Notes under the pieces: model-generated | Seen by the model: only the letters and a program-made list of their open reading frames with translations | Told to the model about the DNA's origin: nothing | The model's database searches: none | Shown: positions 28,922 to 62,297 of the stretch, piece by piece | How the letters are laid out: each line of letters begins with the position of its first letter | Position numbering within the stretch: position 1 is the first letter of the stretch | Translations under genes and position numbers: made by a program | Source of the DNA: a virus | Lineage: Duplodnaviria; Heunggongvirae; Uroviricota; Caudoviricetes | DNA: 64,000 bases | Direction: 5' to 3' (one strand) | IMG/VR virus record: IMGVR_UViG_2737471993_000002

Positions 28922-31030
28922 ATGTCTAAAAAACGTTCCATCAAAGAGGTTCAGGACTTCCGTGACAGTGTAAAACGAGTAGTCGCTCTCCTTTCAGGTA
29001 AAAACATCCCTGTTGCAGAACGAGGGGACGACGCTTATGTACGCTATAACGATGATGGAGAGCCAATTCTCGTAAACATCCCATCAATCCCGGATAACGC
29101 AACACCGGCATTGATGAATGCTGTGCGCGGATTTCTCGATCATGAGGTTGCTCACATTTTGTTTACCGATATTCGTGTGTCCAACAAAATGAGAGAAAAA
29201 GGACGCGTTCCTTCCTGGTCGCTATGGAATGCCTTAGAAGACGTGTTCATCGAGCGAAAAATGGGTCAGGTCTTTAACGGAACAAGACGTAATCTGATGG
29301 CAACTCAGCGCCTTATAATCGAAAAAGTCTTTAAACCAAAGGCTTCAGAGGCTATTGCTTATTGTGGCAAAGATCAGCGCGCGCTTTTTCTAAACTTCTT
29401 TCTCTGTCCGGTTGTAAGAGCCTGGGATGGCCAAGCACCGTTCGTAGATTTCATGGATGAATATTGGCCTGTCATTGAGAAACCAATTTCATTATTAAAA
29501 GAACATGGTATCGATGTGGCCGTGCGTAACATGTCTTGCACCGAGGATTGTGTAAAGGTGGCTGCGACCATAGCTAAGATCCTCAAAGACACTGAAAGTG
29601 AAAGCAAAGGTAAGGAGTCAGCTCCGGGAAAAACTTCCGATCCTTCAGACGCTGACCAGACGGATGCCTCTGGAGAAAACAATGAAGACAACGAAGATCA
29701 TGAGACACCCTCAGCGTTAGATAATCACAAATCTATCAAATCAGAATCACACAGTAAGCACAAACATGATAATAACGACAGTGATGATTCAGATAATTCT
29801 GAATCATCAGAAACAATATTCGATGATACAGAAAATGATAAAGAGGTATCAGATTCTGGTGCTTCTGATAACGCGGCGTCAGAATCATTTACCACTGACC
29901 ACGAAAAAAGAAAATCGACAGAAGACGGCTCTTCAGACATTCCAACTCCGTCAAAAATGAGTCTGGAAGAGGCTTTAGAGGAGTTGGATAGCATGGAAGA
30001 TGAAGTCGGAGGCATGACAGAAGATGCGCTATCCGAAACGATTAAAAGCGAGTTAACAGAAAGCTCGAAAAGCGAATACAGGCCATACAATCGCTCATAC
30101 GACTTCATCGGCTCGATTGATCAGGCAGAAGCCCATATCAAACGGCTTATTAAAACATTCTCCGATATTGATTTAGGTGGATATCCAATCAGCCGTTATC
30201 GCATCGTTCCTGAAGGCAACCAACTCTTCGACAAATATATTGAAAAGCACCTTTCGTCAGGTGTTTCGTCGACGCTGGCAAAAGACCTGGAACGTGCAAT
30301 AGCAAGCAGAAACAGAGTTCAGTTTATACCTGGCCAGCGTCGGGGGCGCATTCATGGTTCAAGTATCTACAGATTAACAATGAATGATGATCGCGTGTTT
30401 CGTAAAAAAGAAGAATCTAAAGCCGTTAACGCCTGTGTTCAACAAGTGATTGATTTATCGGGTTCAATGAGTGGCGAAACGATAAAACTAGCTCTTGCAA
30501 GTGCATATACCATCGCCGATGCACTTGATCGAATAAATGTTCCCAACATTATCACCGGCTTCACTACATTTGGTAGTCATATGGCGGCAGGAGAACTTAA
30601 GGCTGTCAAGTATGAGTTCTCTCGCTTTGAATCTTTAATGCTACCTATCATCAAAAATTGGAATGAAAAGGTAAATTCTCGCGAAGTTCGCTCACGTATG
30701 GGGTGCGTAGGCTACACATTCCCACTTCTTAATAACGTGGATGGTGAAAGCATAGCCAGCCTTGCATCGTTATTTTCCGGTCGCATGGAGGACAGGAAGA
30801 TCATGCTTGTTCTGAGTGATGGCGCGCCGTGGGCTGTTGGGAGAGGTTTTGACGCTCATTTGCGTTCAGTTGCGAAGCAAATTGAAACGCAGACTGATAT
30901 TGATTTGATGGCAATTGGCATCATGACTGACGCACCGGAGAGATTTTACTCAAATCATGCCCTGGTAACGAGCGTTGATAGTCTTGGTTCATCTGTAGTT
31001 ACTGAACTATCTCGTATCATTTTAAAGTGA
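28922..31030 (+). CDS. vWA-domain protein (CobT-like) with acidic Ser/Asp-rich disordered insert
   Basis: C-terminal von Willebrand A MIDAS motif DLSGSMSG; central ~150-aa highly acidic S/D/E-rich region; paired with downstream AAA ATPase. Confidence 0.65.
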   Translation: MSKKRSIKEVQDFRDSVKRVVALLSGKNIPVAERGDDAYVRYNDDGEPILVNIPSIPDNATPALMNAVRGFLDHEVAHILFTDIRVSNKMREKGRVPSWSLWNALEDVFIERKMGQVFNGTRRNLMATQRLIIEKVFKPKASEAIAYCGKDQRALFLNFFLCPVVRAWDGQAPFVDFMDEYWPVIEKPISLLKEHGIDVAVRNMSCTEDCVKVAATIAKILKDTESESKGKESAPGKTSDPSDADQTDASGENNEDNEDHETPSALDNHKSIKSESHSKHKHDNNDSDDSDNSESSETIFDDTENDKEVSDSGASDNAASESFTTDHEKRKSTEDGSSDIPTPSKMSLEEALEELDSMEDEVGGMTEDALSETIKSELTESSKSEYRPYNRSYDFIGSIDQAEAHIKRLIKTFSDIDLGGYPISRYRIVPEGNQLFDKYIEKHLSSGVSSTLAKDLERAIASRNRVQFIPGQRRGRIHGSSIYRLTMNDDRVFRKKEESKAVNACVQQVIDLSGSMSGETIKLALASAYTIADALDRINVPNIITGFTTFGSHMAAGELKAVKYEFSRFESLMLPIIKNWNEKVNSREVRSRMGCVGYTFPLLNNVDGESIASLASLFSGRMEDRKIMLVLSDGAPWAVGRGFDAHLRSVAKQIETQTDIDLMAIGIMTDAPERFYSNHALVTSVDSLGSSVVTELSRIILK

Positions 31031-31045
31031 ACAAAACAGCCTTAA

Positions 31046-31068
31046 CGATAAGTAACCACTTACGATAG
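31046..31068. promoter_or_regulatory. Palindromic operator-like motif (CGATAAGTAACCACTTACGATAG)
   Basis: Motif-family member ~57 nt upstream of start at 31126. Confidence 0.4.
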
Positions 31069-31125
31069 ATAATGATATATTTATATAAGAAGTTGAACGC
31101 TCATTAGAAAACAAAGGAAAAACGC

Positions 31126-32361
31126 ATGACTACTACTGCACTGCAAAATGAAAAAAATCCTTCTGATTACCTTGTTTGCAAGTGGTGCGGAAAATCATTT
31201 CACTATTTTAAGTCCCATGTAGCCAATGGTAATTGCGAGGGCATTCCTGAGTCAGTAAAAGATGCCGATCCTGACACCGTACTGAAAATGTACACAACAC
31301 AGTTTCCAGATGAGCCAACGCTATCGAAAAAGGCACTTGATGCAATTCAAGCTAAACGTGCCGAGCAAAAAAGCGAAATGGCCAAATCATCTGGCGTGAC
31401 CAGTAGCCCAGGCTACACAGGCACAGTTGAGTACAAGACAGATCTGGTCGCAGCTCACGAACTGCTAAATGTAACGGTGAAAGAACTCGGAACAAAACGT
31501 GGGACGCCGCTCATGGTTAGCGTCAACGTCAATACGCCGTTTCCAGAGTTCGTTCCAGAAGTGAAGAAGGGATACGTATATGGCGACTTCGAACTGATCA
31601 AAGACATTTTCATGATGCTTGAACTTGGCATACCTGGCTATTTGTGGGGTCATGCAGGAACAGGCAAATCTTCATTGCCTACACAACTATGTGCTTTGCT
31701 CAATCGTCCGTTAATCCGTGCCCAACATACAGCATCAATGGAAGAGGCTCATGTTACGGGACAAATTCTGGCGCGTGATGGCTCTACGTATTTCGAGCCT
31801 GGCTTGCTTGCGCTCGCAATGAAGCATGGCTGGGTTTACCTCGCGGATGAATACGACTTTGCGTTTCCACAGATTCTTGGCGTGTATCAGCCAGTGCTGG
31901 AAGGTGAAGCGTTGGTCATCAAAGAGGCGACTCCAGAATGGCGTCGCATTACTCCGCATGAACGGTTTGCTTTCATTGGCACTGGCAACACGAACGGATC
32001 TGGTGATGAAACCGGCTTGTACCAGGGTACAAACATCCAGAACGCCGCGAACTTTTCGCGTTTTGGCATCGTTTCGAATGTGAAATACATGAGCAAAGAG
32101 GCAGAGATCAACATGTTGATAAATGCCGGTATCGTGGATGAATACGCAGAAAAGATGGTTAAGTTTGCCGGTATCGTTCGCGATGGATACGAAGAACACC
32201 TTATCAGTCAGCCAATTGGCCCTCGTGAACTTTTGTTGTCGGCCAAGATTGGAATGATGCGAGGCGACTTTGTGACAGGTATTGAGCGTTCTTTCATTAA
32301 CAAACTCCCTTCAGCTTCTGCACAAGCGGCTCGTGAAGTTGTTCAAAAAATATTTGGTTAA
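31126..32361 (+). CDS. AAA+ ATPase (CobS/MoxR-like) with N-terminal Cys-rich zinc-ribbon-like extension
   Basis: Walker A GHAGTGKSS, Walker B VYLADEYDF; N-terminal CKWCGKSFHYFKSHVANGNC. Confidence 0.65.
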   Translation: MTTTALQNEKNPSDYLVCKWCGKSFHYFKSHVANGNCEGIPESVKDADPDTVLKMYTTQFPDEPTLSKKALDAIQAKRAEQKSEMAKSSGVTSSPGYTGTVEYKTDLVAAHELLNVTVKELGTKRGTPLMVSVNVNTPFPEFVPEVKKGYVYGDFELIKDIFMMLELGIPGYLWGHAGTGKSSLPTQLCALLNRPLIRAQHTASMEEAHVTGQILARDGSTYFEPGLLALAMKHGWVYLADEYDFAFPQILGVYQPVLEGEALVIKEATPEWRRITPHERFAFIGTGNTNGSGDETGLYQGTNIQNAANFSRFGIVSNVKYMSKEAEINMLINAGIVDEYAEKMVKFAGIVRDGYEEHLISQPIGPRELLLSAKIGMMRGDFVTGIERSFINKLPSASAQAAREVVQKIFG

Positions 32362-40862: not shown

Positions 40863-41936
40863 ATGGCAAAAGGAAAATCCGCACTGGCACTTGCTCTGAA
40901 AAAGAAAATCGGTAGCAACGACGAAATTCAGAAAGTAACTCATTGGATTGATACAGGCTTTCCACCGTTAAACAAAGCTATTTCTGGTCGTTACGATGGC
41001 GGCTTCCCATGTGGTCGTATCGTCGAAGTATTCGGTCCTCCAAGTGCAGGGAAAACGTTCCTTGCAACAGCAGCGATGATCTCCGCTCAAAAACAAGATG
41101 GTCTGGCGGTATTCCTCGATCATGAAAACAGTTTTGACGTTGGCCTGGCTGTCGCCAATGGCCTGAACGCAGATGAGGATGACGGTCAGTGGGTATACAA
41201 GCAGCCAGATACCTTCGAAGACTCTGTAGAGTTGATCGGCACAATACTTAAATTGGTTCGTGATGAAGAGCTTATCCCCGAATCAGCACCAATCTGTATC
41301 GTGGCTGACTCTCTTGCGTCTATGGTTCCGAACTCCAAAGCCGAGAAGTTCGAAAAGATGGCTGAAGGCACTGCCAAAGACAAAGATCAGCTAAACATGA
41401 ACGACAATACGGCACTGGCTCGTGCGACGAGTGCGAACTTCCCTACTCTGGCTTTGTGGGCACGCAAATACAACGCCTGCATCATCTTCTTGAATCAGGT
41501 TCGCACAAAAATCGGTGTAATGTTTGGCGACCCTACTACGTCGCCAGGTGGAGATTCACCGAAGTTCTACGCTTCTGTACGTATCCGTCTTGGTGCATCG
41601 GTGATGAAGGATGGTAAAGAGAAGATCGGCCAGGACGTAGGCGCAGAATGCATCAAAAACAAAGTTGCACCACCGTATGGCAAATGCACCTGGAAATTCT
41701 ACTTCGATCCTACTCGTGGCCTCGACGTTATCGAATCGCTCGTCGAGTACATGCTGGAAGAAGGATACCTGCCAAAGAACGCCAGCGGGCGAGTTGAAAT
41801 TGGTGACAAGAAATACACCAAATCGCAGATCGTCGAGATGTATCGGGAGAAGCCACTGGCTGAAATCATTGCGGCTTTGCAGGCAATCGACGACCGAAGA
41901 GCAAAAGACAACCCCACCGAGTCAGTAGAAGAGTAA
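40863..41936 (+). CDS. RecA-like recombinase
   Basis: Walker A GPPSAGKT in RecA context (GRIVEVFGPPSAGKTFLATAAMISAQKQDGLAVFLDHENSFD), Walker B ICIVADSLASM; 357 aa. Confidence 0.8.
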   Translation: MAKGKSALALALKKKIGSNDEIQKVTHWIDTGFPPLNKAISGRYDGGFPCGRIVEVFGPPSAGKTFLATAAMISAQKQDGLAVFLDHENSFDVGLAVANGLNADEDDGQWVYKQPDTFEDSVELIGTILKLVRDEELIPESAPICIVADSLASMVPNSKAEKFEKMAEGTAKDKDQLNMNDNTALARATSANFPTLALWARKYNACIIFLNQVRTKIGVMFGDPTTSPGGDSPKFYASVRIRLGASVMKDGKEKIGQDVGAECIKNKVAPPYGKCTWKFYFDPTRGLDVIESLVEYMLEEGYLPKNASGRVEIGDKKYTKSQIVEMYREKPLAEIIAALQAIDDRRAKDNPTESVEE

Positions 41937-44130: not shown

Positions 44131-44462
44131 AGGCCATCCCATTCGCGCTGTTGTTCCTTTCTTCGATCGTTGTGGCCGACACCACTGTTTATCAGTGTGA
44201 AATGTCTGTAGCCGACGTTAAGAATGGCGCTCTTACCGACGTCATAAAAGCACCATATGGAGCGATGGTCGTAGACAGCGGCGACCAGTTCTATGTTGTG
44301 CGTGACGATCGAGTGTTGTCATCCCCATATCTCACAAATCGTAATGGCAAATTAACCGGCGTCGGAGAAGACCACTTCGTATACAACAAATACAAGGGCT
44401 TCTATGGTGTTCACGCTTCTCAGCAAAGCTACCTTTTCGATGACTGCAAGGAGGTTGGATAA
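44127..44462 (+). CDS. Secreted small protein
   Basis: Signal peptide MKAIPFALLFLSSIVVA; 111 aa. Confidence 0.5.
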   Translation: MKAIPFALLFLSSIVVADTTVYQCEMSVADVKNGALTDVIKAPYGAMVVDSGDQFYVVRDDRVLSSPYLTNRNGKLTGVGEDHFVYNKYKGFYGVHASQQSYLFDDCKEVG

Positions 44463-44674
44463 TGGCATTAACACTGGCAGGTCTGGAAATCGAGAAAACA
44501 AGCGGCTACTGGCGTGCTAAGGGTTTCAAGCAGCCTGGCATTCTTGAGCGTCTGGAACGTGAAGATGGGTATATCGTCCACCAGCGGCGTGAATGGCGTA
44601 TGTACGATCCAGAAACAGGAAAACTGACTACAAAAGCCGGAACACTTTGGGGTCTGTTAAAGAAAATACACTAA
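44462..44674 (+). CDS. Hypothetical small protein
   Basis: 70 aa, translationally coupled to upstream gene. Confidence 0.4.
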   Translation: MALTLAGLEIEKTSGYWRAKGFKQPGILERLEREDGYIVHQRREWRMYDPETGKLTTKAGTLWGLLKKIH

Positions 44675-44721
44675 ATGCAAACTGACTGCGGCACGTTCCG
44701 CAGTCATATTTCATAGTCGTC

Positions 44722-45254
44722 ACCGCTGACAGCATACACAATCAACTACCGCTGATAGCATATCGAGAGTCTATCTCACCGCTCACAGCATACTTTACTC
44801 GATTTTTTACCGCTGACAGCATACTTAAGACATTGCATGAATAATGTGTACCGGTATGGGTATAACCAGAACAAAATTACCGCTGGCAGCATACGAAGGT
44901 CTGACATATACCATTAATTACCGCTGATAGCATATCCAAACAAAAATTCCTCAATAAAACACCGCTGACAGCATACGTTCTATCAGGGAGCAGCAGGCAA
45001 TAAATGCCTTTCACTACAAGCAATCAGCGCAATAGCAATAGAATGTTAGTGAGCGCAAACCTATATGGAATGCACTCTTCGAGGTTAGTAACCACTGGGG
45101 AGGTATGACAGAGCATTGAGTGGTGATAGATGATTTACCGCCCACAGCATACGTTCATCTCACTATACCGCTGGTAGCATATATTTAACCGTTTACAGCA
45201 TACTTTTCAGAAAAATAGCCGCTGATAGCATACATTTCACCGCTGACAGCATAT
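44722..45254. repeat. Iteron array (12 copies of ~16-bp ACCGCTGACAGCATAC) downstream of repA
   Basis: Copies at ~44722, 44748, 44778, 44809, 44879, 44920, 44961, then 45137, 45167, 45188, 45218, 45239; minor variants (GATAGCATAT, CACAGCATAC). Two clusters separated by ~160 bp. Confidence 0.85.
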
Positions 45255-46348
45255 CAAAGCAGTTTGAGACTATTGGAAAGGATCTCAATCATCTTGATAT
45301 TTTCAGGCGTCAAATTCTGCGAAAGTTCGGTTATCTTGTTGATAATGTTCTGTTTGGCATCAATTTCCCCAGCTTTCTCATCTAGTTTTTTGGGTTCGAT
45401 GTCTTCAGGTTTTGGCGGTGCGACTTTGAGTTTTGGATTGCGGCTGTGAATCTGGATATAGATCGACCGCCCTCGCTTAATCTCGCTGTATTCGAGATAA
45501 CCCAAATCTTGGAGAGCTTTTAAGCCGTTGCGTATAGTCTGATTCTGCGAGCTGACATTCCTGCTACTCAAATTGAGTCGCGCACGCAATCGAGCAAGCG
45601 ATACCGGCGCAGGCTTGGTTGGAAGACTTTCGATGAAGGTGTACAGAGCCTGTGCTGTTTCTTTGCGTGGTAGCTTATTGATAACCTTTAACTGCAAAAG
45701 AACCTTATGGTCAAAGCGATATAGTTCGGCCAGCTTCGGTTCTGCATAGAACACCACCGTATCTTTCTGCTCGTTGTAGTCCACGCTATTGATGAGGTGC
45801 ACCATCAGAAGCGAGATCTTGTTAGAGCCGTCGACGTTCTTTTCTTCATACGTTCTCTGGAAAGACAGAGTTGTACGCATGATCTTCAAAAGACTGTTTG
45901 TAAGCCGGTCGCGGAGTGTTTTGCGGATCTGTGACGATGGATAGCCACAAAACTTCGCAAATTTCGTGATGCTTAACTCGACACGACCGTTAGGTTCGCC
46001 GTATTCTGCCAGCGAACGCACAACGCCCACCCACGTTTTGAAATCATGATCCATGTCGAGACGAGGACCGGTTATCTTGATATCGGAATAGCCTTCAGAA
46101 CGGGCTACTTCGAGCTGAACAAGCTCCTTTGAAGCATCGATCTCATTTGGCTTGTTACGCTTGCTGTATTTTGTCCCCTTGAGCGTGGGCACGAACAATC
46201 CCAGCCGCATCAACGCAATTGGTTGGACTGTATTGTTGCTATTAGGGACAAGTTCCCCTGTGTACAATTCAAGGGAACCTTCTTCAAAGTTGTCGAGATT
46301 ATCTTCTACTTCTTTGTTATTTTTACCTTTTTTATTTTTTGTGGACAT
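45254..46348 (-). CDS. repA: Plasmid replication initiator RepA (RepFIB / P1 RepA-like)
   Basis: Start at internal ATG 46348 with AAGGTG SD (the longer track ORF would run through the upstream iterons). Motifs NTVQPIALMRLGLFVPTLK, ITGPRLDMDHDFKTWVG, QALYTFIESLP, PVSLARLRARLNL recalled as RepFIB-type signatures. Confidence 0.85.
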   Translation of the reverse strand: MSTKNKKGKNNKEVEDNLDNFEEGSLELYTGELVPNSNNTVQPIALMRLGLFVPTLKGTKYSKRNKPNEIDASKELVQLEVARSEGYSDIKITGPRLDMDHDFKTWVGVVRSLAEYGEPNGRVELSITKFAKFCGYPSSQIRKTLRDRLTNSLLKIMRTTLSFQRTYEEKNVDGSNKISLLMVHLINSVDYNEQKDTVVFYAEPKLAELYRFDHKVLLQLKVINKLPRKETAQALYTFIESLPTKPAPVSLARLRARLNLSSRNVSSQNQTIRNGLKALQDLGYLEYSEIKRGRSIYIQIHSRNPKLKVAPPKPEDIEPKKLDEKAGEIDAKQNIINKITELSQNLTPENIKMIEILSNSLKLL

Positions 46349-46368
46349 GTGGACACCTTTGTCATTCA

Positions 46369-46470
46369 ACCGCTGACAGCATACTTGATTTGCCGCTGAC
46401 AGAATACCAAAAACAGTTGGCAGCATACGGTGAACCGCTGACAGACTATCAATTACCGCTGACAGCATAC
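46369..46470. repeat. Iteron array upstream of repA (origin-side, ~5 copies)
   Basis: ACCGCTGACAGCATAC-type repeats at ~46369, 46392, 46417 (partial), 46434, 46455. Confidence 0.8.
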
Positions 46471-46669
46471 ATGAACATGGCTTCAGACCAGTCGTGGCGC
46501 GGCTTACAGCGATCGGGGATCTTATTTGATCTATACAAGGATCTATCTATGGATCTCTTTATTAGGATCTATCCTGTGGATATGTGAATAATTAAAACAG
46601 GCATTTACTACCTTCGGCGCACCTGGTGGGTTATCGTTGCCTCGGCTAACAATCACAGAAAAATGACAT

Positions 46670-47314
46670 ATGGATCTAAAACGTACGCGCTGGGTTCGTC
46701 GTCTTGAAGACGGCTCCTACACTATCGAATCAAATTCCAACCTGAATAAGCAGAAGTTGCTTTGTGACATCTGCGGTATAGCGGCGAAGTGCCCGATCTA
46801 CGAAACCAGAATTAAACTTGATAAGGCTGGTGTGAATTTTCATTTAAACAGTTGCATCAGGTACGTTCCATTACTCGCATTTCGTAAACCGATCATCGGA
46901 TTGGATGCTCCCTACTTCAACACACTCCGTTCAGGTGTGACGTGGCGAGATCGTTTATCACCAGACAAGCTGATTTGCCTCGTATCCGCAGACACAGGGA
47001 AAATCATCCGTTTTGGGAAAGTAGACAAGGTTTACTCAGGCCCAGTAGACGAAATGTTGCGGAAACACAGCCGGTTTAATCATCTCTGTATGGGTGGTGA
47101 GAAAATCGAGAAAGTAGAAGAAGTGATCCGCAAATCCTACGGACACTTTCTGACCAAAGATAGCCTGCTCACCGCAATCTACATCAGACATGTAAAACGT
47201 GAGTTCGACCTCGAATACCACAGCGAAGAAGAGCTTAACCTTGTTGACCCACGTCCAAAAGCTGGCGTCATAAGCATAAACGCAGCGCGTAAAAAGCCCA
47301 CTGACGCGCTGTAA
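46670..47314 (+). CDS. Hypothetical protein
   Basis: 214-aa ORF. Confidence 0.5.
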   Translation: MDLKRTRWVRRLEDGSYTIESNSNLNKQKLLCDICGIAAKCPIYETRIKLDKAGVNFHLNSCIRYVPLLAFRKPIIGLDAPYFNTLRSGVTWRDRLSPDKLICLVSADTGKIIRFGKVDKVYSGPVDEMLRKHSRFNHLCMGGEKIEKVEEVIRKSYGHFLTKDSLLTAIYIRHVKREFDLEYHSEEELNLVDPRPKAGVISINAARKKPTDAL

Positions 47315-61703: not shown

Positions 61704-62297
61704 ATGATTGCAGCCGAAAAAATCAAACAGCGAAAGCGCGACAACTCTCTTCGTGACCTCTGGAGAACACCTGACTGGCTGTTTTCTGCCATTCAACGTT
61801 ATCTTGGAGTGACATTTGATGTTGACGTTGCCTGCAACAAGGACAATGCAAAGCTGCCTAATTTCATAGGCGTTGAGCGTGATGCTTTGAAATCTGAATG
61901 GGGACAGCCAGGTACAATTGCCTTCCTCAATCCACCCTACTCCAAAATCTCCCCCTGGATTGATGCGGCTATACGTGAGCAGGCTCGCGGAGTTACAACA
62001 GTGATGCTAATTCCTCAATCCCTAGATACAAAGTGGTATGAGCGTGCAACAGAGTGTGCGAATGAGACGATTATTCTGTCTGGTGGCCGCGTAGCGTTTG
62101 TCGAGCCTGACGTCAATCTGGGTCAGGTAGAAGTAAACATCAACCCAGGTGGCAGTATGCTCGTTGTTTTTCGAGGATTCTGTCAGGACGCTGGGCACTC
62201 TATAAGCAAGATCCCTTTGGACGTCATGAAAAGTCTGGGAGGGTATGATCCTGCGAATGTGATCAGGAAAAAAAGACCATCAAAGAAGGCTGCTTAG
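61704..62297 (+). CDS. DNA N6-adenine methyltransferase (phage Dam-like)
   Basis: RTPDWLFSAIQRYLGVTFDVDVA and catalytic FLNPPYS motif; 197 aa. Confidence 0.75.
   Translation: MIAAEKIKQRKRDNSLRDLWRTPDWLFSAIQRYLGVTFDVDVACNKDNAKLPNFIGVERDALKSEWGQPGTIAFLNPPYSKISPWIDAAIREQARGVTTVMLIPQSLDTKWYERATECANETIILSGGRVAFVEPDVNLGQVEVNINPGGSMLVVFRGFCQDAGHSISKIPLDVMKSLGGYDPANVIRKKRPSKKAA

Follow-up and report, generated by a model that had tools for sequence, protein, structure and literature searches.

Do the short repeats that flank a putative initiator gene in a phage sequence make up a plasmid replicon, and if so, of which kind and under what form of copy control? The question is raised by positions 44722–46470 of the IMG/VR virus record IMGVR_UViG_2737471993_000002 (Caudoviricetes), of which a stretch of 64,000 nucleotides (hereafter the window) was analyzed. 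An earlier note, made from the sequence alone, had read this segment as a P1/RepFIB-style replicon, with a repA gene between two arrays of iterons, and had taken it as evidence that the element replicates as a plasmid. The family assignment holds on three counts: homology of RepA to the P1 and RepFIB initiators, origin DNA that aligns with P1 oriR, and an identical order of parts. The plasmid interpretation is likewise supported, as the carriers are SSU5-like phage-plasmids and the unit occurs only on plasmids in complete Escherichia coli genomes. Very probably, the unit is what an SSU5-like phage-plasmid of E. coli replicates from in its prophage (plasmid) state: an iteron-controlled replicon of the theta type with all parts homologous to oriR–repA–incA of phage P1.

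Such a replicon is already known: it belongs to the P1/RepFIB RepA–iteron family, resides on a common E. coli phage-plasmid and is catalogued by its repA under the PlasmidFinder name IncFIB(H89-PhagePlasmid) (PMC12838234). No published account of the iteron-level anatomy of the H89-type replicon was found in the literature searched. What is new here, namely a base-level map, an all-direct bipartite control array and the borders of the cassette, amounts to modest additions rather than a new kind of system, and conceptually nothing goes beyond the P1/RepFIB paradigm. With this unit, a temperate phage of ~110 kb would be able to maintain itself in E. coli as a plasmid of low copy number, also in lineages with blaCTX-M-15 (pECOH89 family). 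Its map can aid the design of mini-replicons or curing tools, aids replicon typing by treating 'IncFIB' as a homology label, and helps explain how related phage-plasmids may avoid incompatibility.

Initiator gene and iteron arrays

The repA gene (45254–46348, minus strand), proposed earlier as a RepA-like initiator, is present as an open reading frame (ORF) for a putative iteron-binding initiator of 364 amino acids (aa) that belongs to the P1/RepFIB subfamily of the Rep_3 family. Its Rep_3 winged-helix (WH1) domain matches Pfam PF01051 (Rep3_N, E 3.9e-9), and its core is fully covered by PHROG 775 (E 5e-133). RepA is 43.5% identical to the RepA proteins of P1 and P7 (aa 32–309, E 2e-64, tblastn), 46.9% to repAFIB of pRSB225 (RepFIB; JX127248; aa 24–339, E 3e-83), about 47–50% to IncFIB(K)-type and other enterobacterial RepAs, 48% to RepA of Salmonella phage SSU5 and E. 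coli phage Cyrano (tblastn), and 85–88% to RepA of Klebsiella SSU5-like phage-plasmids (tblastn). The homology search thus returned the same family as P1 and RepFIB and not an unrelated one. A six-way alignment revealed invariant core blocks (NNTVQPxALMRLG, RLDMDxDFKTW, and AQAxYTFIESLP) and a C-terminal tail of ~55 aa (aa 311–364; 45254–45418) that P1 RepA lacks; the tail is partly common to SSU5/Cyrano-type and RepFIB proteins and ends in the motif L-x-x-E-x-h-x-h-h-E-x-L. No NCBIfam model matched RepA or its neighbours, and PDB yielded no sequence match to either the protein alone or a 6-sequence profile. A single-sequence AlphaFold2 model (predicted local distance difference test score 38, predicted template modelling score 0.26) was unusable and was discarded. 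Of the two winged-helix domains (WH1–WH2 fold) of Rep_3 initiators such as RepE, pi, and pPS10 RepA, WH1 was the one detected (by Pfam).

The position of the repA start was examined together with conservation in 78 related loci drawn from viral and genome collections (RepA 77–100% identical), for which the upstream alignment comprised 38 distinct segments. The longest ORF in the repA frame encodes 404 aa from 46468 and begins within the origin iterons; RefSeq/PGAP calls RepA at this length, from an ATG in the outermost origin iteron (46349–46468). The sequence AAGGTG-N6-ATG at 46348 is kept in the 38 distinct relatives, and the annotation of phage PhiR41_1 uses the equivalent start (364 aa), which together support 46348 as the true start. 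The gene is therefore probably mis-annotated in more than 100 records, and a map that places the PGAP start inside the iterons aids annotation.

Iterons were sought across the whole window as matches to ACCGCTGACAGCATAC with up to three mismatches, and the expectation was derived from dinucleotide-preserving shuffles. The search returned 18 matches against 0.43 expected (none of 100 shuffles reached 18), and all but one lie inside 44722–46470 (17/18), every one on the plus strand. The copies share one conserved unit of exactly 16 bp, within which information content is high and outside which it is low (position-frequency analysis), so that they align as one consistent iteron. On the repA-sense strand the iteron reads GTATGCTGTCAGCGGT, usually followed by A/T-rich bases. 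Upstream of repA, the origin (incC-like) array (46369–46470, minus strand) comprises five direct iterons starting at 46369, 46392, 46413, 46434, and 46455. Their spacing is 23, 21, 21, and 21 bp in ascending order (21, 21, 21, and 23 bp from 46455 down to 46369), and the middle copies are degenerate.

Downstream of repA, twelve iterons (44722–45254) form an incA-like array in two clusters. The proximal cluster (45137–45254, minus strand) holds five direct iterons (starts at 45137, 45167, 45188, 45218, and 45239), and the first iteron met after repA overlaps its stop codon by 1 nt. The distal cluster (44722–44976, minus strand) holds seven direct iterons starting at 44722, 44748, 44778, 44809, 44879, 44920, and 44961, with spacings of 26, 30, 31, 70, 41, and 41 bp. 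An iteron-free gap of 160 bp (44977–45136), containing only short, unconserved ORFs, separates the two. The earlier estimates of about five upstream and about twelve downstream iterons, and of a downstream array split in two, agree with these positions, and the systematic variant it had singled out is real: GATAGCATAT occurs exactly at 44748 and 44920 and in part at 45167 and 45218, in the downstream array only. The earlier note had also proposed examining helical phasing, which gave a divided result. Nearest-neighbour spacings of 21, 30–31, and 41 bp correspond to 2, 3, and 4 helical turns, whereas phasing over longer distances in the downstream array does not hold across periods (R 0.68 at a period of 10.3 bp but at most 0.28 at 10.4–10.6 bp); for that array, only the nearest-neighbour spacings are meaningful.

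No Rfam family was detected within 44300–46900 (E up to 1), a range that covers the array gap and the leader. A promoter-like site, ATGACA-18-GATGAT (9/12; 45105–45134, plus strand), lies within the gap and faces the proximal iterons, antisense to the repA 3' end; against the shuffle control it is no better than chance.

Origin and proposed mechanism

The host-factor part of the origin lies beyond the upstream iterons, within the region (near 46370–46660) that the earlier note had proposed to search for DnaA boxes and an AT-rich unwinding element, and candidates for both are present. At the outer edge, two tandem DnaA-box-like 9-mers (46575–46591, minus strand) read ATATCCACA at 46575–46583 and TTATTCACA at 46583–46591, each differing from TTATCCACA at a single position. 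In the alignment with P1 oriR they fall on the annotated DnaA-binding site, and they are kept in the 38 distinct relatives (P1 features here and below were taken from the annotated P1 record of Lobocka et al.). Next to them lies a GATC-rich and AT-rich stretch (46511–46569), a putative unwinding element and Dam/SeqA control region. It contains six GATC sites in 59 bp (46511, 46518, 46528, 46540, 46552, and 46566), mostly as AGATCC repeats, compared with 4.1 per kb in the window, and aligns with the five annotated Dam sites (1–5) of P1 oriR. The GC fraction falls to 0.29 at 46520–46599, and 46523–46562 is the second least stable 40-mer in 44.4–47.0 kb (−43.1 vs. a window mean of −53.3, standard deviation 4.0). 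A GC-rich spacer, GCCGCGCCACG..CTGG on the repA-sense strand (46483–46510), separates this stretch from the iterons and is kept in P1, SSU5, Cyrano, and the 38 distinct relatives. Over 46488–46602, DNA identity to P1 oriR reaches 77% (E 4e-16, blastn). Single-strand folding of the origin revealed no structure above that of shuffles (z −0.33).

Conservation upstream of repA follows these elements. All 78 loci contain five iteron slots over 86 bp, the middle ones often degenerate beyond three mismatches, and across the 38 upstream segments the DnaA boxes, AGATCC repeats, GC block, iteron cores, and ribosome-binding site are kept while inter-iteron spacers and the outer flank drift. Only 20 nt lie between the last origin iteron and the repA ATG, so the repA promoter is expected to overlap the origin array.

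From P1 we infer how the unit would carry out initiation, licensing, autorepression, and copy control. RepA monomers would bind the five phased origin iterons (46369–46470) and host DnaA the two tandem boxes (46575–46591); together they would open the AT-rich stretch with its six GATC sites (46511–46569), onto which host DnaB would be loaded. Methylation of the GATC sites, by host Dam or by the element's own Dam (61704–62297), would license the origin, and hemimethylation after firing would delay re-initiation. Once bound to the origin iterons, RepA would repress transcription of repA, whose promoter is expected to lie among them. The twelve downstream iterons (44722–45254) would be dispensable for initiation and would lower copy number through RepA–RepA pairing with the origin iterons (handcuffing), a role suggested by homology to P1, and through sequestration of RepA; they would also exert incompatibility on plasmids with the same iterons. 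The iteron–RepA pair is predicted to define a specificity distinct from those of P1, F-type RepFIB, and the pLF82/SSU5 type. In P1, the work of Chattoraj, Austin, Wickner and colleagues reportedly established the requirement for DnaA and Dam, autorepression, the activation of RepA by chaperones, and handcuffing. The window encodes a phage-type Dam methyltransferase (61704–62297, plus strand; PF05869, E 2.5e-38) about 15 kb from the origin, and this enzyme could methylate the six origin GATC sites independently of host Dam.

Several observations weigh against reading the unit as a P1-like replicon in every respect. Both DnaA boxes carry one mismatch, and such 9-mers occur at chance frequency window-wide; their significance derives from conservation and from the alignment with P1. 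The further DnaA boxes that P1 has between incC and repA are absent here. The origin array yielded no convincing sigma-70 promoter: no minus-strand site reached the threshold of a consensus scan, and under relaxed criteria the best of the weak candidates were TTGATA-19-TATGCT (9/12, with too long a spacer) and TTGGTA-18-AAGTAT (7/12), the positional equivalent of P1 PrepA. Finally, the downstream iterons are all direct. In P1, six of nine are inverted relative to the origin; pRSB225 carries one direct and five inverted copies downstream; and the array occurs in both orientations in SSU5 and Cyrano, with none inverted in the H89 clade. The geometry of pairing may differ accordingly from that of P1, RepFIB, and SSU5.

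Role of the downstream array

The downstream array varies in length and is constant in layout. Relatives carry 8–12 iterons (in L008 and L009, the most divergent pair of loci, 4 were detected at up to three mismatches), in two clusters throughout the 78 loci with a gap of 73–192 bp. Every copy is oriented like the origin iterons, and the first one abuts the repA stop codon in nearly all relatives. In phage PhiR41_1 the downstream iterons number nine: a deletion of 87 bp (44738–44824 of the window) has removed three, and its size equals the distance from the iteron at 44722 to the identical one at 44809. This match indicates that array length changes by recombination between iterons, with viability kept, and the three-iteron deletion variant is consistent with a dispensable control array of the dosage type.

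The chief alternative sets titration against handcuffing: instead of pairing with the origin, the downstream array may act mainly as a passive sink for RepA or may reinforce repA autorepression in the manner of an auxiliary operator. Twelve direct iterons in two clusters, unlike P1 incA, and an iteron number of 8–12 among relatives, as expected of a dosage device, speak for it. However, the iteron cores are identical to those of the origin, so that RepA-mediated bridging is physically expected, and RepA autoregulation buffers titration. For P1, earlier work reportedly demonstrated pairing and showed that titration does not suffice by itself. We consider a passive sink or auxiliary operator unlikely, though it keeps a small share of the probability, and handcuffing the preferred role.

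Far less probable is that part of the array, for example the distal cluster (44722–44976), serves as a partition centromere or a second origin. The 160-bp split and the wider spacing of the distal cluster (26–70 bp) would fit such a role, and no parABS locus adjoins the replicon of this element, so a centromere must lie somewhere. Against this, the repeats and the origin iterons share one 16-mer; the distal cluster has no neighbouring DnaA boxes, GATC cluster, or AT-rich stretch; three of its seven copies are deleted in PhiR41_1, a phage that still propagates; and parA/parB are located elsewhere in relatives (PMC3999498). A 411-aa AAA ATPase at 31126–32361 was considered as a ParA candidate and rejected, because its sequence and its 702-aa neighbour are MoxR/vWA-like by eye. 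The pair occupies 28922–32361 (plus strand), just upstream of dnaE: an acidic vWA-like protein of 702 aa, followed by the MoxR-like ATPase, which RefSeq labels only 'AAA family ATPase'.

Cassette borders and carriers

The whole replicon forms a cassette of 2.0 kb (44675–46670), bounded by the stop of a cra-like gene and the start of a 214-aa ORF. The cra-like gene (44462–44674, plus strand), convergent with repA, encodes a 70-aa homologue of the P1 Cra protein (PHROG 804); at this left border, a 9-bp GC-rich hairpin (44683–44706) is terminator-like on both strands. The 214-aa ORF (46670–47314, plus strand) belongs to PHROG 2105 and is annotated with an ASCH domain in Cyrano. Both flanking genes are at least 95% conserved across the two replicon alleles, that of the window and that of Cyrano: in a sliding comparison, identity to Cyrano is at least 95% outside ~44670 (left) and ~46680 (right) and collapses between them. 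Within the cassette, the DnaA/GATC module is recognizably homologous to that of Cyrano and only 57–82% identical. The sliding comparison shows that the divergent unit is the entire intergenic-to-intergenic replicon, DnaA/GATC module included. An exchange of iterons and repA only, to which blastn breaks against SSU5/Cyrano (46482/46510 and 44672/44691) had pointed, was refuted by the same comparison. Judged from these sequences, the locus is fixed and has at least two alleles, of which 44675–46670 is one.

Tentatively, and with clearly less confidence than the replicon assignment itself, the 2.0-kb unit could be an exchangeable 'incompatibility allele', swapped at fixed gene borders with the pLF82/SSU5-type cassette and enabling co-residence or escape from exclusion. 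Its all-direct, bipartite array of 8–12 copies, resized by iteron recombination, might tune copy number with a pairing geometry unlike that of P1, and the RepA tail might add a host or regulatory contact. 

A region of 2.1 kb spanning the replicon is 99.9% identical to the circular 110-kb E. coli plasmid NZ_CP027358.1, 98–99% identical to more than 100 other non-mobilizable plasmids of ~108–114 kb, including p09EL50 (E. coli O104:H4), and 98.6% identical to the isolated phage PhiR41_1. The carriers belong to the pECOH89/p09EL50 type of SSU5-like phage-plasmids (PMC3999498; PMC7969092). The cassette was found in 120 of 5,426 complete E. coli genomes, at 185 places, all on plasmids and none chromosomal, which is the best available indirect evidence that the carriers live as plasmids. 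One example is the plasmid of strain 47258 (110,844 bp; 98.7% identity over 100% of the cassette), which has been typed as IncFIB(H89-PhagePlasmid) (PMC12838234).

The replicon sits inside a phage DNA-metabolism module that encodes a DnaB-like helicase, primase, ligase, DnaE, a gp32-like single-stranded DNA-binding protein, and a 5'-3' exonuclease, together with RecA, SbcCD, NrdAB, ThyA, dihydrofolate reductase, Dam, and RNase H. This large set of replication proteins is what would favor regarding the repA–iteron unit as an inactive relic, with maintenance by phage-type genes (DnaB-like helicase, primase, DnaE) from another origin, but that is very improbable, given that repA is intact in 78/78 loci, that iterons, DnaA boxes, and GATC repeats are kept while spacers diverge, and that two alternative complete cassettes at one locus, with flanks at least 95% identical, point to selection on function. 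In the same module, the RecA-like gene (40863–41936, plus strand) encodes 357 aa with the RecA domain only. Its counterpart in NZ_CP027358.1, PhiR41_1, and Cyrano is longer, at 779 aa, and carries the annotation LAGLIDADG homing endonuclease/RecA; from this difference in length, the window has an intein-free allele of an intein-invaded phage recA.

Comparison with P1, RepFIB, and pLF82/SSU5-type replicons

One close parallel is the oriR/incC–repA–incA replicon of P1 (IncY). Beyond the homology of RepA, both share one order of parts: tandem DnaA boxes, AGATCC/GATC repeats in an AT-rich stretch, a GC-rich spacer, five iterons, repA, and a downstream array. The five origin iterons are spaced by 21–22 bp in P1 incC and 21–23 bp here, and in both an iteron (copy 9 of P1 incA) overlaps the repA stop codon by one base. 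In the host-factor part of the origin, the DnaA site, Dam sites 1–5, and GC block superpose base by base. By contrast, the iteron itself differs (GTATGCTGTCAGCGGT here, GATGTGTGCTGGAGGGAAA in P1), with the GTRTGCTG half alone in common. The downstream array holds twelve iterons (8–12 in relatives) in two clusters instead of nine, and the origin contains six GATC sites instead of five. RepA has 364 aa rather than 286, with a Lys-rich N-terminal extension and the C-terminal tail. In P1, parABS follows incA, whereas here a convergent cra-like gene lies behind the hairpin.

RepFIB of the F/P307 type (e.g. pRSB225) shares with the H89-type replicon a homologous RepA with the terminal tail motif, iterons that flank repA on either side and in one case adjoin its stop codon, and a related iteron sequence (ATAAGCTGTAKTCAGTAA vs. 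GTATGCTGTCAGCGGTAA). The differences are that about a third of iteron positions diverge and that the carrier is a phage-plasmid here and a conjugative F plasmid there. Plasmids typed IncFIB(AP001918) and IncFIB(H89-PhagePlasmid) co-reside in strains EC47258 and EC48956 (PMC12838234), which implies that H89-type and F-type RepFIB do not form one incompatibility group. Given the divergent iterons and this co-residence, the two would not share one iteron specificity, and 'IncFIB' is here a label of homology rather than of shared incompatibility.

The pLF82/SSU5/pHCM2 type, IncFIB(pLF82-PhagePlasmid), occupies the same locus between the same flanking genes (at least 95% flank identity in Cyrano) and resembles the H89 type in overall design and in its RepA (48% identical). 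Its iterons, however, are of the ATCCACTRTAGAGAG type, and its origin module is tandemly duplicated. In SSU5 (locus L004, 1780–1999 and 2155–2400) and Cyrano (locus L086, 3782–4001 and 4155–4400), the two copies of this module, each with a DnaA box, GATC-like repeats, and five iterons, lie ~375 bp apart, and the copy nearer to repA has degenerate GATC motifs (AGAACC/AGACCC). The SSU5 origin iterons had been considered inverted relative to repA; this was rejected, as they are quasi-palindromic and align with the RepFIB iteron in the same orientation. Compared with the pLF82/SSU5 type, the whole 2.0-kb unit of the window is a distinct allele.

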